Part shown: positions 19,627 through 56,965 of the stretch, piece by piece
Layout of the letters: every line of letters starts with the position of its first letter
How positions within the stretch are numbered: position 1 is the first letter of the stretch
Source: Kofleriaceae bacterium
GTDB lineage: Bacteria; Myxococcota_A; Polyangia; Haliangiales; Haliangiaceae
Assembly (NCBI GenBank): GCA_020633495.1
Contig: JACKDR010000001.1
Location: 374,105-438,104 of the forward strand
Direction: 5' to 3'
DNA length: 64,000 nt
Notes under the pieces: generated by a model
What the model saw: the letters and a program-made list of their open reading frames with translations, nothing else
The model's database searches: none
Told to the model about the DNA's origin: nothing
Translations under genes and position numbers: made by a program

Positions 19627-21036
19627 CTACTTTCCTCCGCCTTTGGGGCGGGCTGTCGCAAGACCCCCGTTCAAACCGTGCGTGCGGATTTCCCGCACAC
19701 GGCTTACCGGTGGTCGGTCAGGGAGCGGCATCGTACGGTCGCCGGGATAGCGGACAGTCCCGCGCAAGCGGTGGAGCCCGAGGCGAACGAACTCATCGCG
19801 GGTCCAGCGCGCCATCTCGCCGGGCCGCAGGTTCCGGCCCTTGCGCTTGCGCACCAGGGCACGGAGCCGCTGCCAGACGTAGCTGTCGAGCTGATTGAAC
19901 TTCCGCGCGGCGTTGCCGGTCTTGAAGTAGTTGCCCCAGCCGCGCAGCACCGGGTTGAGCGTCGCGATCGTCTCGCGAAAATCCCGGTGACACGCCGCTC
20001 GCGGGGTCAACTCCTTCACGCGCTGACGCACCCGCTTCATGCTCCGGTCCGACGGCCAGCGCTGCAGGAAGTAGCGTCGCTTCTTCTCCGCGGCCCAGAT
20101 CCGTCCCGACATGCGCTTGTGCAGGTGACACCCCAGGAAGTCGAAGCCCGCCTTTCCGTCGGCAAGCTCGACTCTCCGGGTCTTCTCCGGGTGCAGTTCC
20201 AGCTTCAGACGCTTGAAGATGATCTTCACGCACCGTTCCGCTTCCTCGACCTTCGCCTTCGTATCGCACAGGATGACGAAGTCGTCCGCGTACCGGACGA
20301 GCGTCCCCAGGTGGGCACACTGCCTCGTCCACCGCTCGTCGAGGAACGCCAGGTAGATGTTCGAGAGCAACGGCGAGATCACGCCGCCCTGCGGCACTCC
20401 GCTGAGCATCGCGATCGCGCGCCCCTCCTCCATCACCCCGGCCTCGAGCCACATCCGGATCAGCCTCAGCACCCGCCGGTCGCTCACCCGCCGCCTCACG
20501 CGCTCCATCAACACCCCGTGATCGAGGCTACCGAAGAAGTCGTGGATATCGGCGTCCAGCACGTGGTTGCCCCCGCGCGCCCCTCGGACGCGCAGGACCT
20601 CCAGCGCCTGCGTCGCGCTGCGACCGGGCCGGAACCCGTATGAGCAGTCCTGGAAGTCGACCTCGAAGATCGGCTCGAGCACCAGCTTCGTCGCCGCCTG
20701 CACCACGCGATCGCGCACCGTCGGGATCCCCAGTCCTCGCCGTCCTCCGTTCGCTTTCGGGATCCAGCACCGCCGCACCGCTTGCGGTCGGTACGTGCCT
20801 GCGCGGAGCCGCTCGCCGAGATCCGCGATGAACGCGTCCTCGCCGAGCGTGCGGATCGCGGCAATCGACTCCTCGTCGATACCCGCCGATCCACCGTTCC
20901 GCGCGACCCGCCTCCACGCTTCCCGGAGGATGTCAGCCCTCCAGATACGGTCGTACAGCGCGTGGAAGCGCCTTCCCGGCCCTCGCTTGGCCGCCTCCCC
21001 AGACGTCGTTGCAGCCGCTGCGTGGTCGACCGGCAT
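19627..21036 (-). CDS. Group II intron-encoded reverse transcriptase/maturase (IEP). En-minus: no HNH domain.
   Basis: RT motifs (PQGGVISPLLSNIYL, YADDFVI) and maturase X (LRGWGNYF). The C-terminal ~35 codons read through domain V. Confidence 0.88.
   Translation of the reverse strand: MPVDHAAAATTSGEAAKRGPGRRFHALYDRIWRADILREAWRRVARNGGSAGIDEESIAAIRTLGEDAFIADLGERLRAGTYRPQAVRRCWIPKANGGRRGLGIPTVRDRVVQAATKLVLEPIFEVDFQDCSYGFRPGRSATQALEVLRVRGARGGNHVLDADIHDFFGSLDHGVLMERVRRRVSDRRVLRLIRMWLEAGVMEEGRAIAMLSGVPQGGVISPLLSNIYLAFLDERWTRQCAHLGTLVRYADDFVILCDTKAKVEEAERCVKIIFKRLKLELHPEKTRRVELADGKAGFDFLGCHLHKRMSGRIWAAEKKRRYFLQRWPSDRSMKRVRQRVKELTPRAACHRDFRETIATLNPVLRGWGNYFKTGNAARKFNQLDSYVWQRLRALVRKRKGRNLRPGEMARWTRDEFVRLGLHRLRGTVRYPGDRTMPLPDRPPVSRVREIRTHGLNGGLATARPKGGGK
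19662..19695 (-). ncRNA. Group II intron domain V (catalytic hairpin with AGC triad and GAAA loop).
   Basis: Matches the D5 consensus GAGCCGUAUGCG-GNRA-CGCACGUACGGUUC closely. Confidence 0.65.
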
Positions 21037-21849
21037 ACGACGGTCGGGGAGTTGGATCGCCGGCGGGAGGGGTTACCTGTTCCGCGTTCCGCGACCATGC
21101 CCTTGTGCCTGCGGCCTTCGCCGTCATGACCACCCCAGGGACCCTTCCCTCCGCCGGCGTTCTGCGGCGCCGGCCTCCTCGGTACTACGATCCCTCGGAC
21201 TTCCGCTGCACCGCGGTCGCACCGGCACTCGGCCTCCTCGATTCGCGTCGCCCCGACAAGGGCCGTGCAGACGGATCTCCCGTGTTCCGTGCTTCTCCTT
21301 GAACGCGTGCTGCGCCCCCTACCCCGGAGGGACGCGACGACCGCTTCGGATCTCGATCGTCGCGCGTGGCCTTCGCCGTGACATGAGCGGCTCGGCTCCC
21401 CCATTGTTTCTCTGTCGAGACTGCAGGCTTCACTTCATGTTGCGGCCCGCGTTCTTGCTCCCCGGTGTTCCCGGGCTCCTGACGCCGCGCTTCGGCACCG
21501 AGGATCTCTCCTCGCTCCGGCGGCCTGCTACCCGGCGCTCCGACGCCTACCGGGACGGGACTTCCACCCGCTGGAGAAGCGCAGCAAGACGCATCCTGCC
21601 CCTGCGGGCCATCGGCGTCGTCACGGCGCACCATGATCGAAGCGTACTCCCAGCTCCCGGCCCGGCGGAGGTGTCCGATCCCCGGACGAATGTGACCCGG
21701 CTTCCCCGAAAAAAGCGCGATTCAGCGCAGTTGAACCGTGTTCCTTACCTCCCGTTAACACGCCGTGCATGTGGCGGACGCGTTCGCCCGCTAGCGTCCT
21801 TTCGCGTCGGGCAAGGACCTGCATCGCCCGACGAGGAGGAGAGGAACAG

Positions 21850-41409: not shown

Positions 41410-43179
41410 TCACTTCTTCATGGCGTCGAGCGTGTGCTCGAGCGCCAGCAGCGCGCGCGCCGTGGCGATCGCGGGGTTGGACTCCCAGTAGGTCTGGTCG
41501 GTGTTGGCCCACGACCCGTCGGGCTTCTGCATCGACAGCAGCTTGCCCGCCAGCTCGGCGGCCCAGTCGTGCTCGTGGCCGTCGCTGTCGACGATCGTGC
41601 GCTGGCCGATCAGATCGAGGGCGCGCGCCATCAGGTGGTAGTAGTAGAAGAGGCCCTTGAGCCCCATGCCGGGGTTCTCGTCGACGCTGTAGTTGGCGCG
41701 GACGTAGTCGAGCGCGGCCGCGACCCGCGGGTCCTTGGCGTCGGCCGCGGTGTAGAGGAACCCGGCGATGCCGGCGTAGGTCATGCTGCCGCTCGACAGC
41801 GTGCCGCCGGCCTTGGACTCGCCCGGCTCGTAGACGAAGCCGCCGTCGTTGGTCGCCCACGGCTGGTCGTTGGACTCGCTGCGGTTCTGGCACCGCTCGA
41901 GGAACTTCTGGGCGCGAGCCAGGACCTCGGGGCGATCCTTGAGCGTCGAGTCCTTGAGGGCGTCGAGGGCGAAGTGCATGTTCGACAGGTCGGCGTCGGG
42001 CTCGTTGGGATCGGCGCCGTAGCCGACGCCGCCGTAGTTCTTGTCCTTGGGATCGGTGCCGGTGGCCTCGCCGAACTGCTTGCCGGCCAGGTAGCCCTGC
42101 GCCTTCTCGATCAGGTCGGGGTGGACCTTGGCCTGCTGGAACGCGAGCGCGCTGATCGCCGTGACGTAGACCGGGTAGTCCTTGTCGACGATCGAGCCGT
42201 CGGGCTTGGCCAGGCCGGCGAGCAGGTCGAGGCTGGGCTTGAGGCGCGGATCGTCGGCGGTGACGCCGGGCGCGCCGGCCATCGCCAGCGCGGCCATCGC
42301 GGTGCTGCCCGGGTGGCCGCCGATCAGGCCACCGTCGGCGACCGACTTGCCGAGGAAGTCGACGCCCTTGGCGATCGCGGCCTCGAGGTCGGCGACGGTC
42401 GGGCCCTTGGCGGCGGGCGCCGCCGAGCCCGTGCCCGAGCCCGAGCCCGACGCCGCGCCGGTGCCGGCGGACGCACTGCCGGTGCCGGCCTTGGCCGGCG
42501 GCGACTTGTCGCCCTCGTCCTTCTTCTTGCAGCCGGCGATCGCGACCGCCAGCAGCAGCGCGGTCGCGGCGACGCGGAGGTGACGAGGCCGGCGGCGCCA
42601 CAGCGCCAGCGACGACAGCAGGGTGCCGGCGAGCGCGAACGCCCCAGCGGTCCAGAACCAGGTGATCATGTGCATCTCCATCACGGCTGCGGTGAAACGC
42701 CCGTACAGGGCACGGTCGTGGACGACGTCGACACCGAGGACGACCGACGCCACGAAGGGAGGACTGGCGGCGTAGGCGGCGCTGCGCACCGTCACGCCGT
42801 CGACGCGATCGAGGGTGGACGCCAGCGCCTCGCCGGGGGCGGGCGCCGCGACCAGGACCAGCATCAGCAGGGCGGCGACCGCCGCGGCGACGCCGGCGTC
42901 GACGCGGACCCGGCGCAGCAGCGCCGCGGCGCCCCAGGTCGCGATCGCCTCGGCGGCGAACAGCGCGCGGACCCGCAGCAGCGCCGCGGCGTCGCCGGGG
43001 CCGCCGGCGACGGTCCACGCCACCGCGGCGACCGCGGCGTGGCCGATCAGCACGATCCCGAGGGTGGCGACGCCGCGGCGGCCCGGCGAGGCCGCGCCCA
43101 GCGACGCGTACGCGATCGCCACGGCCGAGGCCTCGAGCCACAACAGCAGCGCCGCCTGGGAGGTCGACACGGCGCGCAT
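41410..43179 (-). CDS. Membrane-anchored protein with prenyltransferase / squalene-oxidase (alpha/alpha-toroid) repeats. N-terminal polytopic domain, then an internal lipobox-like AIAGC.
   Basis: Repeated QxxDGSW/QxxDGGF-type motifs (KPDGSIVDKDY, TNDGGFVYEPG, MQKPDGSWANTDQTYWES). High GC3 throughout. Confidence 0.55.
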   Translation of the reverse strand: MRAVSTSQAALLLWLEASAVAIAYASLGAASPGRRGVATLGIVLIGHAAVAAVAWTVAGGPGDAAALLRVRALFAAEAIATWGAAALLRRVRVDAGVAAAVAALLMLVLVAAPAPGEALASTLDRVDGVTVRSAAYAASPPFVASVVLGVDVVHDRALYGRFTAAVMEMHMITWFWTAGAFALAGTLLSSLALWRRRPRHLRVAATALLLAVAIAGCKKKDEGDKSPPAKAGTGSASAGTGAASGSGSGTGSAAPAAKGPTVADLEAAIAKGVDFLGKSVADGGLIGGHPGSTAMAALAMAGAPGVTADDPRLKPSLDLLAGLAKPDGSIVDKDYPVYVTAISALAFQQAKVHPDLIEKAQGYLAGKQFGEATGTDPKDKNYGGVGYGADPNEPDADLSNMHFALDALKDSTLKDRPEVLARAQKFLERCQNRSESNDQPWATNDGGFVYEPGESKAGGTLSSGSMTYAGIAGFLYTAADAKDPRVAAALDYVRANYSVDENPGMGLKGLFYYYHLMARALDLIGQRTIVDSDGHEHDWAAELAGKLLSMQKPDGSWANTDQTYWESNPAIATARALLALEHTLDAMKK

Positions 43180-43251: not shown

Positions 43252-44124
43252 GTGAGCATGGCTTTCGATGTCGACGGGGCCCTCGCCGAGCTGCTGCGGT
43301 CACGCGCGCGGCCGGAGGGATTGACGTGGCTCGAGCAGGTGATCGCGGACGTCGCCGCGGGCGCCGATCCCGAGGTCGCGTTCCCCGCGGTCGGGCGCCA
43401 CGTCGGGCGCGGCGGCCTCGACGTCCCGGGCGCGACGCTGACCACCGCGACCGGCGAGGTCGTGCCGCTGGCGGCGTGGCGGGTCGACGACGCGGCGCGG
43501 GTCCGAGTGCTGCTCGCGGCGGCGCGCCACGACGCCGCCGGCGCGCTGGCGACCGCGGCGCGGCTGTACGCGCAGGGCGACGCGCGCGAGCGCACCGGCG
43601 CGCTGCGCGCGCTGCCGTTCCTGCCCGGCGCCGCCGACGACGCCGCGGCACTGCCGGCGGTGCTCGACGCCATGCGCGTCACCCAGGGCGAGATCTTCGA
43701 GGCCGCGATCTGCGACAACCCCTACGGCTCGCGACACCTGCCGCAGCTCGAGTGGCGCAAGGCGGTGCTCAAGGCGCTGTTCGTCGGGCTGTCGATCCAC
43801 CGCATCCCCGGCCTCGACGATCGCGCCGACGCCGACCTGGCGCAGAGCCTGTGCGACTTCGCCGCCGAGCGCGAGGCCGCGACCCGCGCGGTGCCGCCGG
43901 AGCTGTGGCCGCTGGCCGCCCGCCACGCGCCGCCGGGGCTGGCCGCCAAGCTGATCGGCTACCTCGAGCACCCCAACCCGGTGCACCGCGCCGCCGCCGC
44001 GACCGCGCTCGGTCACGTCGTCGCGACCGACGCCCGGGTCCGCCCCTTCCTCACCGATCGCGCCGAGCGCGAGCGCGACGACGTCGTCGCCGCCGCGCTC
44101 CGCGGCGCCCTGGCCCGCGGCTAG
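43252..44124 (+). CDS. eboA: EboA-family protein (first gene of the ebo cluster).
   Basis: Conserved position immediately upstream of the TatD / EboE / alkaline-phosphatase trio. No known catalytic motif. Confidence 0.6.
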   Translation: MSMAFDVDGALAELLRSRARPEGLTWLEQVIADVAAGADPEVAFPAVGRHVGRGGLDVPGATLTTATGEVVPLAAWRVDDAARVRVLLAAARHDAAGALATAARLYAQGDARERTGALRALPFLPGAADDAAALPAVLDAMRVTQGEIFEAAICDNPYGSRHLPQLEWRKAVLKALFVGLSIHRIPGLDDRADADLAQSLCDFAAEREAATRAVPPELWPLAARHAPPGLAAKLIGYLEHPNPVHRAAAATALGHVVATDARVRPFLTDRAERERDDVVAAALRGALARG

Positions 44125-44155
44125 CCCCCGCCTCCCTTCGCCCTGCGAGGTCCCC

Positions 44156-45025
44156 ATGCGCATCTTCGAGCCGCACGCCCACATGTTCTCGCGCATCACC
44201 GACGACTACGAGACCATGGCGCTCGCCGGCGTCGAGGCCATCCTCGAGCCGGCGTTCTGGCTGGGCCAGCCGCGCACCCACGTCGGCACGTTCCTCGACT
44301 ACTTCGACACGCTGCTGGGCTGGGAGCGCTACCGCGCCGCGCAGTACGGCATCCACCACTTCTGCGCGATCGCGCTCAACCCCAAGGAGGCCAACGACGA
44401 TCGCGTCAACGCCGGGGTGATCGAGGCGATGCCGCGTTACCTCGAGAAGGACGGCGTCCTCGCGGTCGGCGAGATCGGCTACGACGACATGACCGAGCGC
44501 GAGGAGAAGTTCTTCGCCGCCCAGCTCGACCTCGCCCGCAAGCACGACCTGCCGGCGCTGATCCACACCCCGCACCGCGACAAGAAGCGCGGCGTCCAGC
44601 GCACGCTGGATCTGATCCGCGACGTCGGCTTCCCGATGGAGCGCGCCCTCGTCGATCACAACAACGAGGAGACCGTCACGCTGTGCGCCGACACCGGCTG
44701 CTACATCGGCTTCTCGATCTACCCCGACACCAAGATGGACGAGGCCCGGATGGTGTCGATCCTGCAGCGCTGGGGCACCGACCGGATGGTGCTCAACAGC
44801 GCCTGCGACTGGGGCAAGAGCGATCCGCTCAAGGTCGCGCGCACCGCGCACCGCATGAAGCGCGGCGGCTTCCCCGCCGCCGAGGTCGACAAGGTGGTCT
44901 GGCACAACCCGATCGCGTTCTTCGCGCAGTCGGGGCGCCTGAACCCGGCCGACCTCGACGCCCGGCCGGTGCTCGACGGCGAGCTGTGGCAGGGCAACAG
45001 CATCCTGCGCGGGCAGGGCGGGTAG
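44156..45025 (+). CDS. eboB: TatD-family metal-dependent hydrolase (EboB).
   Basis: Motifs FEPHAHM, GEIGYD, HTPH. Confidence 0.8.
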   Translation: MRIFEPHAHMFSRITDDYETMALAGVEAILEPAFWLGQPRTHVGTFLDYFDTLLGWERYRAAQYGIHHFCAIALNPKEANDDRVNAGVIEAMPRYLEKDGVLAVGEIGYDDMTEREEKFFAAQLDLARKHDLPALIHTPHRDKKRGVQRTLDLIRDVGFPMERALVDHNNEETVTLCADTGCYIGFSIYPDTKMDEARMVSILQRWGTDRMVLNSACDWGKSDPLKVARTAHRMKRGGFPAAEVDKVVWHNPIAFFAQSGRLNPADLDARPVLDGELWQGNSILRGQGG

Positions 45026-45031
45026 CGTCGC

Positions 45032-46183
45032 GTGCGGCTGGCGCTGTCCGGTGACCGGACCGTCCACCTCGGCTACTGCTACAACGTCCTGCCCGGCGAG
45101 ACCGCCGCGGCGCTGATCGATCAGGTCCGGCGCATCTGCGGGCCGGTGCGGGCGCGCCTCGGCGTCGCCCGGCTCGGCGTCGGGCTGTGGATCGCGCGCC
45201 CGGCCGCCGCCGAGCTGATCGCCGACGCCGCGGCCCGCCGCGCCCTCGCCGCCGCGCTCGCCGCCGAGGGCCTCTACGTCTTCACGCTCAACGGCTTCCC
45301 GTACGGCGGCTTCCACGCGCCGCGGGTCAAGGCGCGGGTGTTCCGGCCCGGCTGGGACGACGACGCCCGCGTCGCCTACACGATCGACCTGGCGCGCATC
45401 CTGGTCGAGCTGTTGCCCGACGACGTCGCGCGCGGCTCGATCTCGACCCTGCCGCTGGGCCCGGCCGACGTCGATCGCGCCGCGGCGCGCGCCGGGCTGC
45501 GCCGCGCCGACGACGCCCTCGCCGAGCTCGAGGCGACCACCGGCCGCCGCGTCGAGCTCGCGGTCGAGCCCGAGCCGGGCGCCGGCTTCGAGCGCGTCGA
45601 CGTCATGGCGCCGTGGCTGGCCGAGGCCGACCGCGGCCGCGCCGGCCGGCTCGGCGCCTGCGTCGACCTGTGCCACGCCGCGGTCGTCGACGAGGCCGAG
45701 ACCGCGCCGTTCGTCGCGCTCGCCGCCGCCGGCGTCCGCTGCGCCAAGGTCCAGGTGTCGAGCGCGCTGGTGGTGCCGCGCCCGGACGACGACGCCGCGC
45801 GCGCCGCGCTGGCCGCGTTCGACGAGCCGCGCTTCCTGCACCAGGTCCGCAGCAGCCGCGGCGGCGCGATGGACCTGCCCGAGGCGCTCGCCGACCTCGA
45901 TCGCGGCGTGCCGTGGCGGGTCCACTTCCACGTCCCGGTCCACCGCGACGTGGTCGGCCCCGGCGGCGCGTTCGCGACCACGGCGCCGACGATCGCGCCG
46001 ATGCTGGCGGCCGCGCTGGCCGCGCCCGGCGAGCCGCCCCACCTCGAGGTCGAGACCTACACCTGGGGCGTCTTGCCCGAGGCCGAACGGCCGCGCGACG
46101 ACGCCGGCCTGTGCGACGGCATCGCGCGCGAGCTGGCCTGGACGCTCGGCGAGCTCGCCGCGCTGGGAGTGCACCCGTCATGA
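45032..46183 (+). CDS. eboE: EboE-type TIM-barrel protein (sugar-phosphate isomerase/epimerase-like, 'metabolite traffic protein').
   Basis: 383 aa. N-terminal motif LGYCYNVLPGE. Position between the TatD and the alkaline-phosphatase-family gene. Confidence 0.62.
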   Translation: MRLALSGDRTVHLGYCYNVLPGETAAALIDQVRRICGPVRARLGVARLGVGLWIARPAAAELIADAAARRALAAALAAEGLYVFTLNGFPYGGFHAPRVKARVFRPGWDDDARVAYTIDLARILVELLPDDVARGSISTLPLGPADVDRAAARAGLRRADDALAELEATTGRRVELAVEPEPGAGFERVDVMAPWLAEADRGRAGRLGACVDLCHAAVVDEAETAPFVALAAAGVRCAKVQVSSALVVPRPDDDAARAALAAFDEPRFLHQVRSSRGGAMDLPEALADLDRGVPWRVHFHVPVHRDVVGPGGAFATTAPTIAPMLAAALAAPGEPPHLEVETYTWGVLPEAERPRDDAGLCDGIARELAWTLGELAALGVHPS

Positions 46184-47604
46184 GCCCGTCCCCTGCCCCG
46201 TCCGGCGCCGCGCCGGTGGTCGTGCCCGTCGTCGTGATCGACGTCGTCGGGCTAACTCCCGACCTGTTGCCGCACATGCCCCGGCTGTCGGCGTTCGCGC
46301 GCGACGGCTGGCAGGCGCCGCTGGGCACGGTGCTGCCGGCGGTGACCTGCTCGGCGCAGTCGACCTTCCTCACCGGCGCGCCGCCCACCGAGCACGGCGT
46401 CGTCGGCAACGGCTGGTTCTTCCGCGAGCTGTCCGAGGTCTTCCTGTGGCGGCAGTCGAACCGCCTGGTCGGCGGCGACAAGGTGTGGGACGCGGCGCGG
46501 CGCCTGCTCGGCACCGCCGAGCGCCCGATCACCTGCGCCAACCTGTTCTGGTGGTACGCGATGGGCGCGTCGACCGACGTCTGCGTGACGCCGCGGCCGG
46601 TCTACCACGCCGACGGCCGCAAGGGCCCGGGCGTCTACACCCGGCCGGCCGCGCTCGGCGGCGAGCTGGCGCGGCGGCTCGGCGAGTTCCCGCTGTTCGA
46701 CTTCTGGGGGCCGCGCGCCGGGCTGCCGTCGTCGAAGTGGATCGCCGACGCCGCCCGCTGGGTCTTCGACCAGCAGCGCCCCGACCTGACGCTGGTGTAC
46801 CTGCCGCACCTCGACTACGACCTGCAGCGCTTCGGCTCGCGCGGCGCCGAGGCCCGCGCCGCCGCCGCCGCGATCGACGAGATCGCGGGCGCGCTGATCG
46901 ACCACGTGCGCGGCGCCGGCGCCACCGTGCTGGTGCTGTCGGAGTACGGCATCACCGACGTCAGCCGGCCGGTCCACGTCAACCGCCGGCTGCGCGAGGC
47001 CGGCCTGCTCGAGGTCGCGTTCAACCCCGCCGGCGAGCTGCTCGACACCTTCGCGTCGCGGGCGTTCGCGGTCGCCGATCACCAGGTCGCGCACGTCTAC
47101 GTCAACGACCCGGCCGACCTGGCCGCGACGCGCGCCGCGCTCGCCGACCTGCCCGGCGTCGCCGAGATCCTCGACGACGACGGCAAGCGCGCCGCCGGGC
47201 TGGCGCACCCGCGCGCCGGCGACCTGGTGCTGGTCGCCGAGCCCGACGCCTGGTTCACCTACTACTACTGGCTCGACGACGCGCGCGCGCCCGACTTCGC
47301 GCCCACCGTCGAGATCCACCGCAAGCCCGGCTACGATCCGGCCGAGCTGCTGTTCGACGGCGGCGCCGCCAAGGCGCGCGCCGCGCTGCGCCTGGCCCAG
47401 AAGGCGCTCGGCTTCCGCTACTCGATGGACGTGATCCCGCTCGACGCCTCGGGCGTGCGCGGCTCGCACGGCCGGCTGCCGGCGCGCGACGAGGACGGCC
47501 CGGTGCTGCTGTGCAGCGACCCGCGGTTCGCCCGCGACCGCGTCGAGGCGACCGAGGTCAAGGGCTTGATCCTCGACCTCATGGGCGCCGACGGCCGGCG
47601 GTAG
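46180..47604 (+). CDS. eboF: Alkaline phosphatase / nucleotide pyrophosphatase-phosphodiesterase family protein (EboF).
   Basis: ATGA overlap with eboE. Motifs VIDVVGLTPD, TCSAQSTFLTG, LPHLDYDLQ. Confidence 0.75.
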   Translation: MSPSPAPSGAAPVVVPVVVIDVVGLTPDLLPHMPRLSAFARDGWQAPLGTVLPAVTCSAQSTFLTGAPPTEHGVVGNGWFFRELSEVFLWRQSNRLVGGDKVWDAARRLLGTAERPITCANLFWWYAMGASTDVCVTPRPVYHADGRKGPGVYTRPAALGGELARRLGEFPLFDFWGPRAGLPSSKWIADAARWVFDQQRPDLTLVYLPHLDYDLQRFGSRGAEARAAAAAIDEIAGALIDHVRGAGATVLVLSEYGITDVSRPVHVNRRLREAGLLEVAFNPAGELLDTFASRAFAVADHQVAHVYVNDPADLAATRAALADLPGVAEILDDDGKRAAGLAHPRAGDLVLVAEPDAWFTYYYWLDDARAPDFAPTVEIHRKPGYDPAELLFDGGAAKARAALRLAQKALGFRYSMDVIPLDASGVRGSHGRLPARDEDGPVLLCSDPRFARDRVEATEVKGLILDLMGADGRR

Positions 47605-47698
47605 CGGGCGCCGTCGGCGCCGGCGAGGCCGCCGACCTTGGTGGGCGCGGGGCCGCCGACCGCATCCAGTGCGCGCGCACCGGCGCGCCAGCGCGGCG

Positions 47699-49701
47699 CT
47701 ACAGCGCGACGCCGAGCCGGCGCGCCAGCCGGTACAGCGTGCTGCGCGCGATGCCCAGCTCGCGGGCCGCGGCGCTGACGTTGCCGCCGCTGGCGTCGAG
47801 GGCGCGCCGCAGCGCCTCGGCCTCGGCGCGATCGAGCGCCCCCGTGGTCGGCGTCGTCGGCCTGGCGCGGCGGCGCGCGCCAGGTCCGCCGGCAGGTGCG
47901 CCGCCGCGATCTCGATCGCGCCGGCGCCGCGGGCGGCGATCAGCGCCACCTCGAGCACCGACATCAGCTCGCGGACGTTGCCCGGCCAGGCGTGACGCGC
48001 CAGCAGCTCCTCGACCTCGGCCGACAGCGTCGGGGCCGGCCACCAGCCGGCGCGCTCGGCGCAGACCGCGAGCAGGCGGTGGGCGAGCGCGACCAGGTCG
48101 CGGCGATCGCGCAGCGCCGGCAGCCGCAGGATCGCGCCCTTGAGCCGGTAGTAGAGATCCTGGCGGAACGTGCCGCGCGCCACCGCGTCCTCGAGGTCGC
48201 GGCAGGTCGCGCAGATGACGCGGACGTCGCAGCGCTCGACGCGCGCGTCGCCGACCCGCTGGAACCGCCCCGACTCCAGGACCCGCAGCAGCGCCGCCTG
48301 CATCGCCAGCGACATCTCGGCGACCTCGTCGAGGAACAGCGTGCCGCCGCTGGCGGCGTGGAACAGGCCGGTGCGGCCCCGGCGATCGGCGCCGGTGAAC
48401 GCGGCCGGCGCGTAGCCGAACAGCTCGCTCTCCAGCAGCGTCGGCGCGACCGCGCCGCAGTTGATCGCCACGAACGGCCCCGGCGCCCGCGCGCTGGCGG
48501 CGTGGATGGCCTGGGCGAACAGCTCCTTGCCGGCGCCGGTCTCGGCCAGCACCATCACCGGCAGCTCGCTGCGCGCGACCAGCCGCGCCCACGCGATCGC
48601 CTCGAGCAGGCGCGGGTCCTCGGCGAAGATCGGCGCGAACGCGTCGCTCGGCGGCGGCGGCGGCGGCAGCGACCGCGCCGCCACGACCTCACCGCCGGCG
48701 CCCCCGCGCGCCGTCACCACCGGCGCGGCCTCGAGGTACGCGATCACCGCGAGCGGCCCGCCGGTGGCGCCCATGACCGGCTCGGCGTGGAGGCGGAACC
48801 GCCAGGCCCCGGCCGCGGTCGGCCGCGCCAGCGCGCGCCCGCCGGGCGTCGGCGCCATCGCCTCGTCGACCAGCGCCGCCCAGTCGAGGCCGAGCAGCGC
48901 CCGCACCGGGCCGCCGGCGGCGACCCCACCGAGCGCGATCCGCGCCGGCGCGTTCATGCGCGCGACCCGCCCCGGCGCCTCGATCAGCAGGGCCGGCGAG
49001 GTGGCGCGATCCAGCGACCGCGCCAGCACCCGCAGCACCGAGCCGCCGGCGGTGGCGTAGGCCTGCAGGCGCAGCAGCTCGGTCAGGACCTCGGCGGCGC
49101 CGAACACCGCGGCGCCGACCTCGTCGGACGCGTGATCGACGCGCGAGGTGGCGTCGAGGACGCCGACGACACGGCCGTGCAGGTCGAGGATCGGCGCGGC
49201 GTAGCAGGCCAGCTGGTGGTAGCTGGCGGCGAAGTGGGCGCGGCCGAGCACGACCGTGGGCCGCCGCTCCGACGCCGCGGTGCCGATCGCGTTGGTGCCG
49301 CGCGCGGCCTCGCTCCACGCCGCACCCTCGATCAGGCGGACCCGCCGGGCCTCGTCGCGGAACTCGCCGCCGCCGTCGCTGCGCACGACGACGCCGTCGG
49401 CGTCGGCCAGCAGCAGCACGAAGTCGTGGGCCGAGACCTGGCCGGCGGCGCGCGCCAGCGCGACCGAGCCGAGCGACTGGACGACGTCGACGTGCTCGGC
49501 GTGGAGCCGGAACGCCTCGCCGCGGATCAGCGCGTCGTCGATGGGATCGCCGCGCCACGACGCGCCGAGCCGCTGCGACCGGCTCCAGCGCTCGACGTGG
49601 CGCTCGGGCGCGACCGCGCGGCGGTGCGACCGTCCCTCGTGGAACGCCCGCCACGTGGCCTCCGGGACGTCCTCGAGGACCAGGGCGTCGGTGCCTCCCA
49701 T
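47699..49701 (-). CDS. AcoR-like sigma-54-dependent activator (GAF sensor, AAA+ domain, Fis-type HTH) with an apparent frameshift in the linker (about 47840-47880).
   Basis: AAA+ motifs (ETGAGKE, GAFTGA, ESELFGY). The C-terminal HTH (GNVSAAARELGIARSTLYRLARRLG) is in a second frame (ORF 47699-48592). Confidence 0.65.
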
Positions 49702-49905
49702 GCGGACAAGTTGCAGCGGAAACGCGGTGATCACAAGCCTGACGCCTCGACCGTCGCGGCCCGCGACAGCCGCTGTCGCGGATCGCTCCACCGTGACGCG
49801 CCGAGTCGGGCGGCAAGTGCGCGGGACGGCGCGATCGCGGGGCCGCACGCGGCGCTGGCGCGCGACGTGAACTGACGACGGGCTCAACCCCAGGAGGCAT
49901 CGACG

Positions 49906-51426
<1,521 letters not shown>

Positions 51427-51442
51427 GCCGGGTGGTGACCCG

Positions 51443-51829
51443 GTGAGCGATCCGGATCAGGACGCCGTCGCGGGCGGCGCCGACGCGACGGTGGCCCCCC
51501 CGCCGGGCGTCGACGCCACCGCGGCGGCGCTCGACCTGGTGCGCGCGCTGATCGAGGAGCACGGCCCGCTGATGTTCCACCAGTCGGGCGGCTGCTGCGA
51601 CGGCAGCGCGCCGATGTGCTACCCGCTCGGCGAGTTCCGCCTCGGCGCCCGCGATGTCCAGCTCGGCACGATCGCGGGCTGCCCGTTCTACATCGGCGGC
51701 GACCAGTACGAGCGGTGGAAGCACACGCGCCTGCTGATCGACGTCGTCCCCGGCCGCGGCGCCGGCTTCTCGCTCGAGGTGCCGCGCGGCGTGCGGTTCG
51801 TGATCCGCTCCGAGCTGTGCGCGGTGTAG
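51443..51829 (+). CDS. DUF779-family protein (commonly paired with aldehyde dehydrogenases).
   Basis: GGCCDGSAPMCYP...GCPFY Cys pattern. Confidence 0.7.
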   Translation: MSDPDQDAVAGGADATVAPPPGVDATAAALDLVRALIEEHGPLMFHQSGGCCDGSAPMCYPLGEFRLGARDVQLGTIAGCPFYIGGDQYERWKHTRLLIDVVPGRGAGFSLEVPRGVRFVIRSELCAV

Positions 51830-52413
51830 CTCGGGGGACGGTGATCCGTGCGACGTGGCGCTCGGTGCCGACGTAGACGAAGACGTAGTCGCCCGGGCCC
51901 AGCGTCGCGGCTGCGCCGAGAAGCTGCAGGTGGAGCGCGTCGGAGAGGGGCGCCACCTGGATCCCGCTGAGGTCCGGCTGGCCGGCGCGGCCGAAGCGCG
52001 ACAGCCGCAAGCCATCTGCCTCGTAGATCGCGACGCTCGAGCTCCCCTCGACGGCGATCGCGGCGGCGAGCACCGTCACACCGGTCGGGTCGCCGACGGC
52101 GCCCACGATGCTCACCGGGCTTGTCCCCCGCGTCCCACAGGTCGTCCTGGTCGAGGGGCTCGCCGTCAGCCCCGAAGCGCCAGCGATGCACGACGCCGCG
52201 CCTCGGGGCGATCACGACGTAGGCCCTGCCGTCCCAGACGAGCGTCGGTGGGAACTGGTGGTCCGTACCGTCGAGGCGGGTGCAGCCCGCGGCGACGATG
52301 CCCATGTCCCGATCGACGACGCAGAAGCGTCCCGGAGCCGCTACAGCCGATGAGCAGCGCCGCGAAGCACCACCACCGCAGGCCGGGCATCAGCGCGAAC
52401 GCTCGGGCAACAG
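51830..52413 (-). pseudogene. Lipoprotein gene broken into three frames.
   Basis: Lipobox (MPGLRWWCFAALLIGCSG) in ORF 52166-53368. Coding-like pieces are in ORFs 51688-52305 and 51366-52115. Confidence 0.3.
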
Positions 52414-52485
52414 CCAAGACCTTCGGAGATGGTGCCATGGTCGGCGTACATCCGCCCAGGTGACCGTCGCCCCGGGGCGCGCGGT

Positions 52486-53196
52486 TCACCCTGCCCCGGG
52501 ACGCTCCCAGGGTGACACCTTGCGGTGGCGCTTCCAGCCGGTGGTGAGCAGCCACGTCGTCGGGAACGCGACCGGCAGGATCTCGGCGTCGGGGCGCAGC
52601 CGCGTCACGACGGGGCCGTCCGCCCAGCCGTCCCAGTGCGCGCCGGTCGCGTACGGATCGAGCCGTCCGGGGCGGGCGCCGCGGTCGGCGCCGTGGCGGC
52701 GCCAGGTGTTGAGGACGTAGGCGAGGGCGTGACGTGCTTGCCTGGGGCTGGTGATGACGCGCGGGTGGTAGCGGTCGGCGAAGACCTGGCCGCGGCGGCG
52801 GGCGCCGGTGCGACGGCCGATGGCGCGGTTGATGTGCTTGGCCGCGGAGATCTGGAGGCCTTGCATGCCGCGCGCGAGCGCGGTCGCGTTCGTGGCCTCG
52901 ACGACGAGGTGGATGTGGTTGCCCTGGATCGACAGGTGCACGACCCGGAAGTCGTCGCGGCGGAGCGAGGTGATCAGCGCGCGGCGCATGGCGCGGTAGA
53001 CGTCGCGGCGACGCAGGCGACCGAGGCCCTCGACCACGCGCAGCGTGACGTGGACCGGGTGTTCCTTGCGCAGGGGCGCGCGCGCCTCGTGACGCTCGCT
53101 GGCGCGCGGTCCGCGCGGGGGTCGCCCGGCGCCGGGCCGGCGACCACCTCGTGGATCGCCGAATCGCAGCTGTCCCTGTCGTCTCGAGGTGGCCAT
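52486..53196 (-). mobile_element. Y1 (HUH) transposase of the IS200/IS605 TnpA / REP-associated tyrosine transposase type.
   Basis: HxH motif (NHIHLVV) and catalytic Tyr context (ADRYHPRVI). R/G-rich N-terminal extension. Confidence 0.68.
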
Positions 53197-53267
53197 TTTG
53201 ATTTCGCCGATATTTATCAGAGAGGGCTGACATTCGGTCTCCGTGACACCGCGACGCATCGTGTAGC

Positions 53268-53432
53268 AGCGCGTCGCGGGTCGTGCGTCGCGGGTCGTGC
53301 GTCGCGGGTCGCGGGTCGCGGGTCGCGGGTCGCGGATCGTGCGCCGCGGGTGGTGCGTCGCGGGTCACCGCGCCGCGGGGCGTACGTCGCGGGTCACCGC
53401 GTCGCGTACGTCGCGGGTCACCGCGTCGCGAA
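53268..53432. repeat. Tandem array of GTCGCGGG / GTCGCGGGTCGTGC-type short repeats (REP-like) immediately 5' of the Y1 transposase.
   Basis: About 12 copies of the 8-mer core, seen directly. Confidence 0.7.
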
Positions 53433-54035
53433 CGTCATCGGTCCCGGGTAGCCGTTGCCACGCGGGATCTCGACGACGAGCTGCGCGGCGTCGCCCCACC
53501 AGCGCTCGTCGTCGTCGCAGGTCGCGTCGGCGATCACGGGCAGCCCGCGGGTGGCGGCCCGTGACGCGCCGTGAGCGCCGTCGACGATGTCGAAGCCGGC
53601 GGGGTGCGCGACCAGCGCGCGCCACAGGATCGCCTGGGTCAGCAGCTGGCGGCCGTCGCGCGCCGACGGCCGCGACACGCCCTCGACCATCGCCGCGCAG
53701 ACCCAGCCGCGGCCGGCGGCGTCGAGCGTGTAGATCGTGTCGTCGACGCCGAAGATCACCGGCACGAGGTCGCGCTCGTGGCCGGTGTACGGCCCGGCCG
53801 AGAAGCACCCGTACGGGCCGACGACCAGCGACGGCACCGCGGGGTCGGCCGCGGCGTCGAAGACGCGCAGGCCGCCGTACGCGGCCTCGAAGTCGAGCAC
53901 GGCGGCGTGCGCGGGGAAGCCACGGCCCTCCAGCAGCGCGGCGGCGGCCGCGCGGTCGGCACGGGCGCCGGCGCGGTCGGCGCGCTGGTCGGCCAGCCAG
54001 CGGAGCACCAGGGGCGGCAGGTCGAGCTCGAGCAT
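53418..54035 (-). CDS. Hypothetical protein.
   Basis: 205-aa ORF with high GC3 and no recognisable motif. Confidence 0.4.
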   Translation of the reverse strand: MLELDLPPLVLRWLADQRADRAGARADRAAAAALLEGRGFPAHAAVLDFEAAYGGLRVFDAAADPAVPSLVVGPYGCFSAGPYTGHERDLVPVIFGVDDTIYTLDAAGRGWVCAAMVEGVSRPSARDGRQLLTQAILWRALVAHPAGFDIVDGAHGASRAATRGLPVIADATCDDDERWWGDAAQLVVEIPRGNGYPGPMTFATR

Positions 54036-54062
54036 CGGCGGCCTCGGGGCGCGGCGCGCCGG

Positions 54063-54896
54063 CTACGCCAGCGCCGGCGCCACGAACTCGAACGCGCGGC
54101 GGGCGATGCGCGCGGCGTCGTGGGAGTGGCGCGACAGCTCGAACGTCGCCGGGCCGGCGTAGCCGGTGGCGCGCAGGGCGCGGACCACGCCGACGACGTC
54201 GAGGTCGCCGTCCCACGGCACCAGGTGATCGTGGTCGGGGCGGCGCATGCCCTCGACGTGGACGTTGACGATGTCGTCGGCCCACGCCCGCACGGTGGCG
54301 TCGGCGCCGGCGGCCTCGGTGAGGTGGGCGTGGCCGACGTCGAGGGTCAGCCGCAGCGCCGGGTCGTCGACCCGGGCGCGGATCCGCGCGAACGCCGCCA
54401 TGTCCTCGACGTACATGCCGGGCTCGGGCTCGAAACCGACGACGACGCCGGCGTCGCGGGCCCGGCCGCACACGGCGCGCAGGCCGTCGGCGAGGCGGGC
54501 GTCGAGCGCGTCCTGCCCGGGGGCGTCGTCGGCCGCGCCCGACCACAGCGACACCACCGGCGCGCCGATCGCCGCCGCCGCCGCGATCGCCCGGCCCAGG
54601 AAGTCGACGCGGACCGCGCGCTCGGCGGGATCCTCGGACAGCAAGGTCGGCCGGTGCTTGCGCCGCGGGTCGAGCAGGAAGCGGGCGCCGGTCTCGATCA
54701 CCGGCACCAGGTCGAGGTCGCGGCACGCCGCCGCCACCTCGCGCAGCTCGGCGGCGTGGCCGGGCGCGAACGGATCGAGGTGGTGGACGTCGAGCGTGAT
54801 CGCCACCGACCGGTAGCCGACCTCGGCGATCACCGCCAGCGCGTCGGGCAGGCGGTGGTGGGCGAAGCCGTTGGTGTTGTAGCCGAGCCGCATCAC
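54063..54896 (-). CDS. Sugar phosphate isomerase/epimerase (xylose-isomerase-like TIM barrel).
   Basis: Family hallmarks GYNTNGF, VGFEPEPGM, LDVGHAHL. Confidence 0.75.
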   Translation of the reverse strand: MMRLGYNTNGFAHHRLPDALAVIAEVGYRSVAITLDVHHLDPFAPGHAAELREVAAACRDLDLVPVIETGARFLLDPRRKHRPTLLSEDPAERAVRVDFLGRAIAAAAAIGAPVVSLWSGAADDAPGQDALDARLADGLRAVCGRARDAGVVVGFEPEPGMYVEDMAAFARIRARVDDPALRLTLDVGHAHLTEAAGADATVRAWADDIVNVHVEGMRRPDHDHLVPWDGDLDVVGVVRALRATGYAGPATFELSRHSHDAARIARRAFEFVAPALA

Positions 54897-54905
54897 GCCC
54901 CGCGC

Positions 54906-55796
54906 TCAGGTCGGCGAGAAGAACTGCTTGAGCACCAGCGCCGGCACCGCCAGCAGCGCCACCGCGACCGCCCAGAACGGCGTGCCCGCCACCGCCGCGA
55001 TCGACGCGTCGATCACCGGGATCAGCAGGATGCCGCCGCCGATGGCCCGCCCCGTCGACGGCCCGTCGTGGCGCCGCCACAGCGGCGACCAGTTCTTGTA
55101 CGCCAGGGTCAGCGCGACCAGCACCCACGGCCACGCCCACGCGCTGCGCGGCACGCTCGGACACACGACCAGCCCGACGAGCACGCCGGCGCCGAGCACC
55201 GCCATGAAGGTCAGGCCGGTCCGCGCGCGTCGCGCGGTGTTGCCGTCGACCTCGTCGCGCGCGATGTAGGTCAGACCGGCGACGTAGAGCGCCAGCACGA
55301 TCGGCCCGGCCAGCGCGGCCACCGGCCAGCCACCGGCCCACGGCAGCCCGACCGAGATGCCGAGCGCGACGTCGAGGCCGCGGCACGCGCCCATCGCGAG
55401 CGGCCCCAGCTTGGTGTGCTTGAGGATCGTGTCGTAGGCGAGGATCGTCCCGGCCAGCACGGTCGCGACCACGGCCGGGGTCCGGCCCAGCGTCGCCGCG
55501 ATCGCGACGCCGGCGGCCATCAGACCGACCCCAAGCATCGCCGCGAAGCGCACCGAGATCTCGCCGCTCGGGATCGGCCGGGTCGGCCGCTCGCGGGCGT
55601 CGATGTCGCGATCGAAGACGTCGTTGAGGACGATGCCCGACAGGTACAGGCACGCCGACGCGATCAGCACCGCGGTGGCGCGATCCGGGACCTCGATGCC
55701 GAGGCCCCACAGGACCAGCAGGCCGGCCAGGGCGTCGGCCATCGCGGTGAAGACGTTGGGCGGCCGGATCAGCCGCAGCAGCGCGCCCACGTTCAC
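54906..55796 (-). CDS. UbiA-family prenyltransferase (candidate EboC equivalent).
   Basis: Asp-rich motif (NDVFDRDIDA). 8-9 TM. GTG start overlaps the upstream stop (GTGA). Confidence 0.75.
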   Translation of the reverse strand: MNVGALLRLIRPPNVFTAMADALAGLLVLWGLGIEVPDRATAVLIASACLYLSGIVLNDVFDRDIDARERPTRPIPSGEISVRFAAMLGVGLMAAGVAIAATLGRTPAVVATVLAGTILAYDTILKHTKLGPLAMGACRGLDVALGISVGLPWAGGWPVAALAGPIVLALYVAGLTYIARDEVDGNTARRARTGLTFMAVLGAGVLVGLVVCPSVPRSAWAWPWVLVALTLAYKNWSPLWRRHDGPSTGRAIGGGILLIPVIDASIAAVAGTPFWAVAVALLAVPALVLKQFFSPT

Positions 55797-56965
55797 GGCG
55801 CGGCCTCGACGGCGAGGTCGGCGCCGATCACCGGCAGCAGGTGGCCGATCAGCGCCAGCCACTGCAGCTCGAGGCGGTGCTCGCTCGAGCCGATCGGGTT
55901 CTTGAAGAAGACCGCGAGGTGGGCGAGCACGCCGCGCTCGCCCTGGCGCTGGGCCAGGGCGGCGAGCCGGATCAGATCGATGCACAAGGGCGCCGCCAGC
56001 GAGGTGTCGCTGCCGCGCCAGGTCAGCTCGAGCGTCATCTGCGCGCCGCCGAAACCCTCGAAGCAGATGCGGTCCCACGCGACCTTCCAGTCGCCGTAGC
56101 TGGGGACGTAGTCGATGCCGACCCGGCTCTCCGGGGCGTAGCCGAGGATCGCCGCCAGCGACGCGCCCTTGGAGTGCTGCTTGGCGGCGCGCGGCCCGGG
56201 ATCGTCGAGGGCGCGGCCGTCGTCGTTGCCGAGGATGTTGTGGCTGACCCAGCTGTTCACCTGGAGCCGGCGGATCGCGAACATCGGCGCCAGCGCGGTC
56301 TTGATCAGGGTCTGGCCGGTCTTGCCGTCGGAGCCGGCGTGGACCGCGCCGCGCGCCAGCGCCAGCGCGTGCAGCGCCGGCAGGTCGCTGCCGGTCGACG
56401 GCGTGAAGTTGACGTAGGCCAGGCCGAGGTCGAGCGCCGCGGCCGCGTAGATCGCGCTGGCCGGCAGGCGCAGGCCGCCGCGCAGCGCCTCGAACAGGCC
56501 GTCGGGCGTGGCCGGCACCTGCTCGAGGCCGTCGGGGCGCGCCTCGGTCGAGGCGACGTTGAGGACGACGACGTGGGCGCAGCCGTGGCGGTCGCGGAAC
56601 CGGGCCAGGTCACCGCGCACCCGCTCGAACGCGTCCCAGCCGACCAGCCCGGTGACGCCGCGGCACACCTCGGCGGCGGTGGCGGCCAGCGCGGCGCGCA
56701 CCGGCGCGGCCTCGACCACGGCGGCGGGCAGGATGCCCTCGGCGACCAGGCCGCGGACCGCGTCGGCGACGCTGCGGCCGCCGATCTCGTGGCCACCGAA
56801 GACGACGTCGTCGAGCGGCGCCAGCGGCAGCTCCGACAGCGGCGGCGCGGCGGTCACCAGCCCGGTGGGGGGCAACAGCTCGGCGCGCACCGCCGCCCAC
56901 CCGGCGATGGTGCAGGCGCCGACGTTGCCGGCGGGGCCGATGACCCAGACTCCCAGTGCGACCAT
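55793..56965 (-). CDS. myo-Inositol-1-phosphate synthase family protein (inositol-3-phosphate synthase-like sugar-phosphate cyclase).
   Basis: N-terminal Rossmann ([17 protein letters not shown]) and conserved [12 protein letters not shown] region. Confidence 0.72.

Follow-up and report, generated by a model that had tools for sequence, protein, structure and literature searches.

The canonical ebo (or EDB) operon consists of six genes, eboABCDEF, and is known from Bacteroidota, Cyanobacteria, Pseudomonas and the plastids of eustigmatophytes (PMC5133447, PMC6282210). A bioRxiv preprint (Kallscheuer et al., May 2026; 10.64898/2026.05.21.724671) links the ebo genes to saccharoquinoline and to thallusin, an algal morphogen that is no longer made when eboB, C, E or F is deleted, and it reports ebo core genes in Myxococcota. 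The same work describes an 'Actinomycetota-type' organisation that has ino1 (inositol-3-phosphate synthase), ino2 and ino3 and no eboD, the ino genes being proposed as a bypass to the same cyclitol, and it names Saccharomonospora sp. CNQ-490, which has this layout, as a confirmed producer of thallusin and saccharoquinoline. EboC-type enzymes farnesylate hydroxyquinoline carboxylic (hydroxyquinaldic) acids (PMC9235831), and the NCBI model NF045897 ('SCO3242 family prenyltransferase') covers the prenyltransferase of the inositol-type variant. Here we describe ebo-type genes in Kofleriaceae bacterium (Myxococcota), found at two sites within a stretch of 64,000 nucleotides of contig JACKDR010000001.1 (assembly GCA_020633495.1, positions 374,105 to 438,104), which is referred to as the window throughout.

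The best explanation of the two sites, to which we give a probability of about 0.85, is that together they form one seven-gene, inositol-type ebo cluster that lacks eboD and is laid out as two convergent operons, with 6.5 kb of unrelated cargo at the junction. EboA, a TatD protein (EboB), EboE and EboF are encoded on the forward strand at 43252-47604, and a gene of the myo-inositol-3-phosphate synthase (MIPS) family, a UbiA prenyltransferase gene and a second TIM-barrel gene lie on the reverse strand at 56965-54063. The resulting operons, eboA-B-E-F and MIPS-eboC-TIM, leave 6,458 nt between them, and the single co-directional operon of six genes that marks a canonical ebo cluster is not found in the window. 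At a G+C content of approximately 75%, plain lists of open reading frames (ORFs) are swamped with spurious frames, and genes were chosen by their third-position GC, which is 0.90-0.99 in the stop-to-stop ORFs that hold six of the seven genes (all except eboF). The seven genes are intact and full length at the coordinates given in an earlier note, which had been made from the sequence alone, and they align over 92-100% of their length with their orthologues in the related locus L001, at 68-88% identity. Translational coupling is seen in two pairs, as the GTG start of the UbiA gene overlaps the MIPS stop codon (GTGA) and the ATG of eboF overlaps the stop codon of eboE (ATGA); the second TIM-barrel gene begins 9 nt past the UbiA stop. 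The family models and coordinates agree with the earlier note in placing an EboA-like, a TatD, an EboE-type and an alkaline-phosphatase-family gene in ebo order at 43.2-47.6 kb, and the GTGA overlap that it reported for the opposite-strand operon at 54.0-57.0 kb is likewise present, between the MIPS and UbiA genes. The order of that operon is MIPS, UbiA, TIM, so that UbiA does not come first as the note had listed it.

Scans of 43.1-57.1 kb for sigma-70 promoters gave no promoter-like sites, and terminator-like sites in the same interval occurred at chance level, both scans being uninformative at such a GC content. The stop codon of eboF lies within a perfect inverted repeat of 11 bp, GGCGCCGACGG ... 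CCGTCGGCGCC, at 47584-47620, which is a possible terminator hairpin of the T-less kind.

Profile searches with hidden Markov models (HMMs) bear out the membership of EboA and EboE in their families, both proteins scoring above cut-off (Table 1). EboA falls well short of the full-length subfamily model NF035937 (121.4 bits, cut-off 320) and shows a HEAT_2 match at residues 224-288; its orthologues in relatives are 48-74% identical and carry Pfam PF28008 EboA. The EboE match extends over profile positions 1-378 of 379, and a sequence search of the PDB with EboE returned no match at E<=0.01, i.e. no solved relative by sequence. EboB is 82-88% identical to closer myxobacterial orthologues (L001-L003, L009), 75-77% to more distant ones (L012, L019) and 59% to the orthologue in Streptomyces, and EboF is 66% identical to its counterpart in the Streptomyces operon described below.

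In the other operon, the MIPS-family protein shares 43% identity over 247 residues (E 3.8e-60) with the MIPS of Archaeoglobus fulgidus (1u1i), a biochemically validated enzyme, and 44% with the ebo-linked synthases of Streptomyces and Haloferax; it reaches only 29 bits against the actinobacterial INO1 equivalog TIGR03450 (cut-off 638). It retains D225, N255, L257, K274, K278, K306, D332 and K367 of the A. fulgidus enzyme, residues that we take to be catalytic from the mutant structures 3qvw, 3qvx and 3qw2. The sequence predicts an active enzyme, a sugar-phosphate aldol cyclase that depends on NAD. The UbiA protein has NF035940 ('UbiA-like protein EboC') as its best NCBIfam match, with 204.5 bits over positions 2-290 of 292 against a cut-off of 250, followed by 183.8 bits on NF045897 against a cut-off of 260, and its translation holds an NDxxDxxxD motif ('NDVFDRDID'). 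The second TIM barrel gave weak matches only in NCBIfam (UlaE, IolE and similar) and distant matches only among PDB sequences (UlaE, 3e-6). It is 46% identical to the 'sugar phosphate isomerase/epimerase' at the same place in the Streptomyces operon and probably is the counterpart of Ino2 or Ino3 of the preprint. One extra AP_endonuc_2 barrel is thus present in the window, and the myxobacterial loci share no second candidate. No eboD resembling 3-dehydroquinate synthase (DHQS) was found among the window ORFs scanned, nor among the called genes of the orthologous loci L009-L013, L017 and L019. The earlier note had remarked that both the UbiA gene and a DHQS-like eboD are missing from the first site, and this is so: the former sits in the other operon, and the latter has no DHQ-synthase-family match in the scanned ORFs.

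That the two sites are one unit is argued by the distribution of the genes elsewhere. The same gene set occurs in at least nine independent loci of Myxococcota, Actinomycetota and Halobacteria, and the MIPS-family (Ino1) gene keeps its place, linked to the ebo core in lieu of eboD, in nine loci; such co-occurrence is far beyond chance. A protein search of annotated plasmids led to the linear plasmid unnamed1 of Streptomyces sp. NBC_00019 (L017), which carries a single co-directional operon of seven genes in the order inositol-3-phosphate synthase, SCO3242 family prenyltransferase, sugar phosphate isomerase/epimerase, EboA-domain protein, TatD, eboE and a protein of the nucleotide pyrophosphatase/phosphodiesterase (NPP) family. 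Each of the seven window proteins has its counterpart among these seven consecutive genes, with identities of 39-66% and an unchanged order inside each half, and no DHQS-like gene and only one extra barrel were found at this operon as well. Genes for MIPS, NPP, TatD, two TIM barrels and UbiA are also clustered on Haloferax volcanii pHV3, in Natronomonas and in Halorubrum, in a different layout in which MIPS is co-directional with the NPP gene. The single operon in Streptomyces, together with the co-localisation in haloarchaea, indicates that the two sites in the window are one unit. It also agrees with the suggestion of the earlier note that a MIPS-type cyclase replaces the DHQS-like EboD in a variant pathway, which corresponds to the Actinomycetota-type organisation of the preprint. 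As a separate observation, a ScyD/ScyE-family gene precedes the Streptomyces operon, and a multicopper oxidase gene is found close to the inositol-type cluster both there and on Haloferax pHV3 (L018); these are possible oxidative tailoring partners.

The Kofleriaceae and Myxococcales relatives compared, with MIPS genes 53-75% identical to that of the window, reveal how the junction between the two halves varies. In L001, L002, L003, L009/L010 and L012/L013, MIPS, UbiA and TIM run towards EboF, EboE, EboB and EboA on the facing strand. Between the facing 3' ends lie an overlap of 17 nt without cargo in L009/L010, about 0.5 kb with nothing detectable in L003, 1.4 kb with a lipoprotein and an ATPase gene in L001, 1.9 kb with CotH in L012/L013, and 2.7 kb with a DUF222-HNH gene and a secreted protein gene in L002. 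The halves thus abut 3'-to-3' at no more than 2.7 kb in six related loci, and the 6,458-nt gap of the window holds cargo found in none of them, so that the cluster was split by insertion, as the earlier note had considered, with the refinement that the insertion widened an existing junction and broke no transcription unit. Each operon keeps its own 5' region, and the insertion should therefore not disturb expression. L011/L019, which lie on one contig of 1,067,772 bp (ERZ25072999), show another arrangement, MIPS-UbiA-TIM...EboF and EboE-EboB-EboA being about 27 kb apart. The break is here between eboF and eboE, EboF staying with the MIPS half, and this different break point means that linkage was kept across different rearrangements. 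A DUF222-HNH gene at each breakpoint, and an integrase (rve) and AAA_22 pair of IS21-like appearance at one edge, suggest that the rearrangement was mediated by repeated mobile genes. No locus of the Kofleriaceae lineage showed all seven genes in one operon, variable genes have landed repeatedly at the 3'-3' junction, and physical splitting of the set is evidently tolerated.

Table 1 Features of the ebo locus and its neighbourhood; positions refer to the window.
Feature	Position	Strand	Assignment	Match or remark
eboA	43252-44124	+	EboA-domain protein with HEAT-like C-terminal extension	NF035938 EboA_domain, 145.7 bits (cut-off 50 bits)
eboB	44156-45025	+	TatD-family metal-dependent hydrolase	PF01026, 56.7 bits
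eboE	45032-46183	+	EboE-type xylose-isomerase-like TIM barrel	NF035939 equivalog, 340.7 bits (cut-off 250 bits)
eboF	46180-47604	+	NPP, alkaline-phosphatase superfamily	PF01663, 195 bits
MIPS-family gene	55793-56965	-	NAD-dependent sugar-phosphate cyclase, Ino1 counterpart	PF07994, 137 bits; PF01658, 106 bits
UbiA gene	54906-55796	-	EboC-like UbiA-family aromatic prenyltransferase	PF01040, 66 bits
Second TIM-barrel gene	54063-54896	-	Xylose-isomerase-like TIM barrel (sugar-phosphate isomerase/epimerase/dehydratase type)	PF01261 (AP_endonuc_2), 126 bits
Insert	47605-54062		Lineage-specific cargo that separates the two operons at their 3' ends	Outside the pathway
Sigma-54 activator gene	47699-49701	-	GAF/sigma-54 AAA+ activator	Fis-type helix-turn-helix (HTH; PF02954) in another frame from ~47860-47885
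Aldehyde dehydrogenase gene	49906-51426	+	Aldehyde dehydrogenase (ALDH, Aldedh)	Pfam match
DUF779 gene	51443-51829	+	DUF779	Pfam match
Broken ORF	~51830-52440	-	Lipoprotein-like	Signal peptide with LIGC lipobox; appears to run through two frame changes
Transposase gene	52486-53259	-	IS200-like Y1 transposase (Y1_Tnp)	Pfam match
Tandem repeat array	53269-53436		~9-14 copies, 7/14/24-nt period	Consensus GCGTCGCGGGTCGT
205-aa gene	53418-54035	-	Orphan	Just downstream of the second TIM-barrel gene
Neighbour of eboA	41410-43170 (or to 43179)	-	Terpene-cyclase-like, candidate accessory gene	Link to the pathway unproven
MoxR gene	38166-37226	-	MoxR-type AAA+	Operon of the neighbour
DUF58 gene	from ~37235	-	DUF58	Operon of the neighbour
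VWA gene	36366-33175	-	VWA	Operon of the neighbour, which runs to ~33175

The cargo in the junction is unrelated to the pathway and partly decayed. Pfam matches confirm the sigma-54/aldehyde-dehydrogenase module and the Y1 transposase that had been noted between the two sites, and none of the genes of the insert is found at this junction in L001-L003 or L009-L013. The displaced HTH of the sigma-54 activator can be explained by a single-base indel in a GC-only run, the sign of a pseudogene or of a fault in the assembly; the lipoprotein-like ORF is likely a degraded gene or an indel artefact. The tandem array sits between the start of the transposase gene and the 3' end of the 205-aa gene. The earlier note had spoken of REP-like repeats, a description that does not hold, as the motif forms a single local tandem array of a 7/14/24-nt unit to which it is essentially confined within the window, and dispersed REP (repetitive extragenic palindromic) elements were rejected. 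The insert as compositionally foreign DNA is not supported either, with a GC content of 0.745 against 0.754 in the flanks and 0.70 in the ALDH-DUF779 part. The 205-aa gene was considered as an eighth pathway gene and dismissed, being absent from all orthologous loci and having homologues in a tandem array of paralogues without ebo genes. Further away in the window, a group II intron-type reverse transcriptase/maturase gene (RVT_1 and GIIM) is located at 19627-21072 (-), and an RNA ligase gene (PF09414; 2725-4239, -) directly adjoins a gene for an S-adenosylmethionine (SAM) methyltransferase, a pair that could be an RNA-repair module.

On the other side of the locus, a terpene-cyclase-like gene diverges from eboA across about 80 bp. 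The earlier note had described its product as a periplasmic prenyltransferase/squalene-oxidase-repeat protein adjoining eboA divergently; the arrangement stands, and the family had to be corrected. The protein matches an NCBI entry of 586 aa, 'terpene cyclase/mutase family protein [Kofleriaceae bacterium]', at 100% identity, a local Pfam and NCBIfam scan of its 598- and 586-aa forms gave no significant family, and its homologues carry PF13243 SQHop_cyclase_C. A single-sequence search of the PDB returned low-complexity noise only. The AlphaFold model (predicted local distance difference test score, pLDDT, 84.5) has a helical membrane domain at the N terminus and a single (alpha/alpha)6 toroid at the C terminus, joined by a disordered linker that contains a lipobox-like AGC. 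Its best Foldseek matches are the monodomain myxobacterial 'SHC' (squalene-hopene cyclase) 8paj/8pak and the monodomain meroterpenoid cyclase MstE (E 5e-6 to 1.5e-4; template modelling (TM) score about 0.6 relative to the target), along with the drimenyl diphosphate synthase SsDMS, and a profile of the family matches squalene-hopene cyclase at 1e-18, SsDMS at 1e-8, 8paj at 4e-6 and MstE at 1e-5. MstE uses a DxD motif (PMC12414744). Neither this motif nor the canonical DxDD is kept in the neighbour and its family, where the segment that HMMER aligns to D374-V-D376-D377 of SHC reads D-L-S-N. D394 is the only Asp that is invariant among 24 homologues, the D before it in 'DAD' varies, and the register is uncertain by two residues. 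Standalone relatives have signal-peptide-like N-termini, and the protein appears to be located outside the cytoplasm, facing the envelope.

The neighbour stands divergently beside eboA also in L001, L009/L010, L012/L013 and L019, with 68-137 bp between the starts, and is not beside it in L002 or L003; the two genes are adjacent in five of the seven myxobacterial lineages sampled. Inspection of the divergent intergenic regions of five genomes revealed no apparent shared motif beyond the start codons. In the window the gene is the first of a long reverse-strand operon with MoxR, DUF58 and VWA genes. The 38-41 kb stretch of this region reaches 82-84% G+C, and the homologue of a 372-aa gene downstream of the neighbour switches frame between about 40785 and 40536. 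Toroid homologues that stand alone provide further associations. One lies directly upstream of an ebo-type MIPS gene in a metagenome-assembled genome of Planctomycetota (L007), and two of the five sampled belong to an operon SQHop_C > YdjY > TIM (AP_endonuc_2) > TatD > TIM (AP_endonuc_2) > UbiA, present on two independent metagenomic contigs (L015 3528-8810, L020 792-6037), where no EboA, EboF or cyclitol cyclase was found near this ebo-like core. Of the others, one is in a YdjY...MoxR-DUF58-VWA operon and two are in unrelated contexts. Because the published ebo pathway model has no dedicated cyclase, the recurrent association is suggestive. Perhaps the neighbour and its standalone relatives are a component of the ebo pathway that has escaped recognition, acting as a farnesyl-to-drimane cyclase or as an envelope-side partner that binds or processes the prenylated product, although we consider this unlikely. 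The gene nevertheless offers a concrete candidate for a step without an assigned enzyme in the current pathway model.

If the seven genes act together, a route can be proposed that is drawn from published ebo work and joined to the family assignments, conserved residues and conserved linkage seen here. The MIPS-type enzyme would cyclise a hexose 6-phosphate, probably glucose 6-phosphate, by an NAD-dependent aldol route. The second TIM barrel, EboE, the TatD protein and the phosphodiesterase EboF would then convert and dephosphorylate the cyclitol to a precursor of the deoxy-inosose type, which is what EboD would make directly in other phyla. This precursor and aspartate would give a hydroxylated quinoline acid that the membrane-bound, EboC-like UbiA protein may farnesylate, and the end product would be a meroterpenoid of the saccharoquinoline/thallusin type or a close relative.

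Several points weigh against this reading of the locus. The link to thallusin comes from a preprint not yet peer reviewed. The UbiA protein is of the EboC/SCO3242 kind and is divergent, passing neither curated threshold. One extra isomerase-type gene is present compared with the two (Ino2 and Ino3) of the preprint, and the chemistry of the bypass may differ or use a gene elsewhere. The search for eboD covered the 64-kb window and the orthologous loci, and a DHQS-like eboD may lie in another part of the genome. Finally, the apparent frameshifts in three nearby genes point to possible indel errors in the assembly, none of which is found in the seven genes.

It is possible, though we hold it to be the lesser part of the probability, that the same enzymatic logic serves another product, either a different prenylated metabolite derived from a cyclitol or quinoline or the role in 'metabolite traffic' proposed for the export of scytonemin. 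A UbiA protein below both equivalog cut-offs and the presence of only one gene of the Ino2/3 type would fit such a difference in product, as would a terpene-cyclase-like neighbour that is absent from the Streptomyces and Haloferax clusters. The ebo genes have moreover been tied to different phenotypes, precursor export in Nostoc (PMC6282210) and nematode repellence in Pseudomonas (both reviewed in PMC12904256). However, the gene set is identical to that of the Streptomyces operon and has the layout known from the confirmed producer Saccharomonospora sp. CNQ-490, and the preprint reports thallusin in Nostoc too and reinterprets the effect on scytonemin as indirect (10.64898/2026.05.21.724671).

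Very unlikely is a locus under relaxed selection that, having suffered an insertion and frameshifts in its neighbours, makes no product any more. Such decay could be read from the transposase, the sigma-54 activator with its HTH in another frame, the broken lipoprotein-like ORF at about 51.8-52.4 kb and the frame change that affects the homologue of the 372-aa gene, which follows the cyclase-like one. Yet the damaged genes are all outside the seven, which are full length, well aligned to L001 and high in third-position GC; the insertion lies between two stop codons and not within a transcription unit, and relatives tolerate other insertions at the same junction. Least credible of all, and disfavoured here, is a chance juxtaposition of two unrelated operons, with MIPS-UbiA-TIM serving an inositol-derived lipid or another prenylated inositol and eboABEF being an incomplete fragment. 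MIPS and UbiA-type enzymes also act in the synthesis of archaeal-type inositol lipids and of ether lipids, and the two operons are on opposite strands with unrelated genes between them. This is countered by the seven genes forming one operon in Streptomyces and by partners that are reshuffled and still together in haloarchaea and in L011/L019. In addition, fusions of a xylose-isomerase-like domain with EboA have been reported from Actinobacteria (Yurchenko et al. 2016, PMC5133447), which ties the TIM-barrel half to the EboA half. A single inositol-type ebo cluster in two operons thus remains our preferred explanation.

This explanation places an eboD-less inositol-type ebo cluster in Kofleriaceae, within the Myxococcota, and the identical set in Streptomyces and the related set in haloarchaea suggest that the unit as a whole has spread horizontally. 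Myxobacteria of soils and sediments are, on this view, possible sources of thallusin-like meroterpenoid signals. Rules for cluster calling that are based on contiguity would score the locus as two partial clusters; the cluster search of the preprint allowed gaps of up to six ORFs (10.64898/2026.05.21.724671), and the gap here is approximately at that limit. That the same seven genes are rearranged differently between lineages is, in turn, a good comparative argument for assigning the whole set, MIPS-type enzyme and second TIM barrel included, to one pathway.

Compared with known systems, the locus shares EboA, EboB (TatD), an EboC-like UbiA, EboE and EboF with the canonical ebo operon and keeps the relative order A-B-...-E-F. 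It differs in having the MIPS-family enzyme and a second TIM barrel instead of eboD, and in the position of eboC, which lies between eboB and eboE in the canonical operon and in the other operon here. The cyclase-like neighbour has the single (alpha/alpha)6 toroid of about 330 residues in common with MstE and 8paj/8pak at an identity of only 14-21%, and differs from these in its membrane domain at the N terminus, its lipobox-like motif and its place at the head of a MoxR-DUF58-VWA operon. The haloarchaeal cluster (Haloferax volcanii pHV3 HVO_RS01025-01055, Natronomonas, Halorubrum) likewise combines MIPS-type, NPP, TatD, UbiA and TIM-barrel genes without a DHQS-like gene. No EboA was detected in it, and it gave no match to the window EboE at E<=1e-5, two TIM2-like barrels being present instead; its gene order and strand layout are also unlike those of the window. 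The closest likeness is to the Actinomycetota-type or SCO3242-type cluster, with the same seven-gene content, the same order within each half and no DHQS-like EboD. That cluster forms one co-directional operon in Actinomycetota, whereas the window, from Myxococcota, has two convergent operons with the 6.5 kb of cargo, and its UbiA protein is matched slightly better by the EboC model than by that of the SCO3242 family. At the corresponding edges of the window cluster, no counterpart was found of the ScyD/ScyE and multicopper oxidase genes that border the Streptomyces operon, and the terpene-cyclase-like neighbour of the window is absent from the Streptomyces and Haloferax clusters. The eboD-less inositol-type variant is therefore real but already described, and the window adds to it a myxobacterial instance with a different operon architecture.

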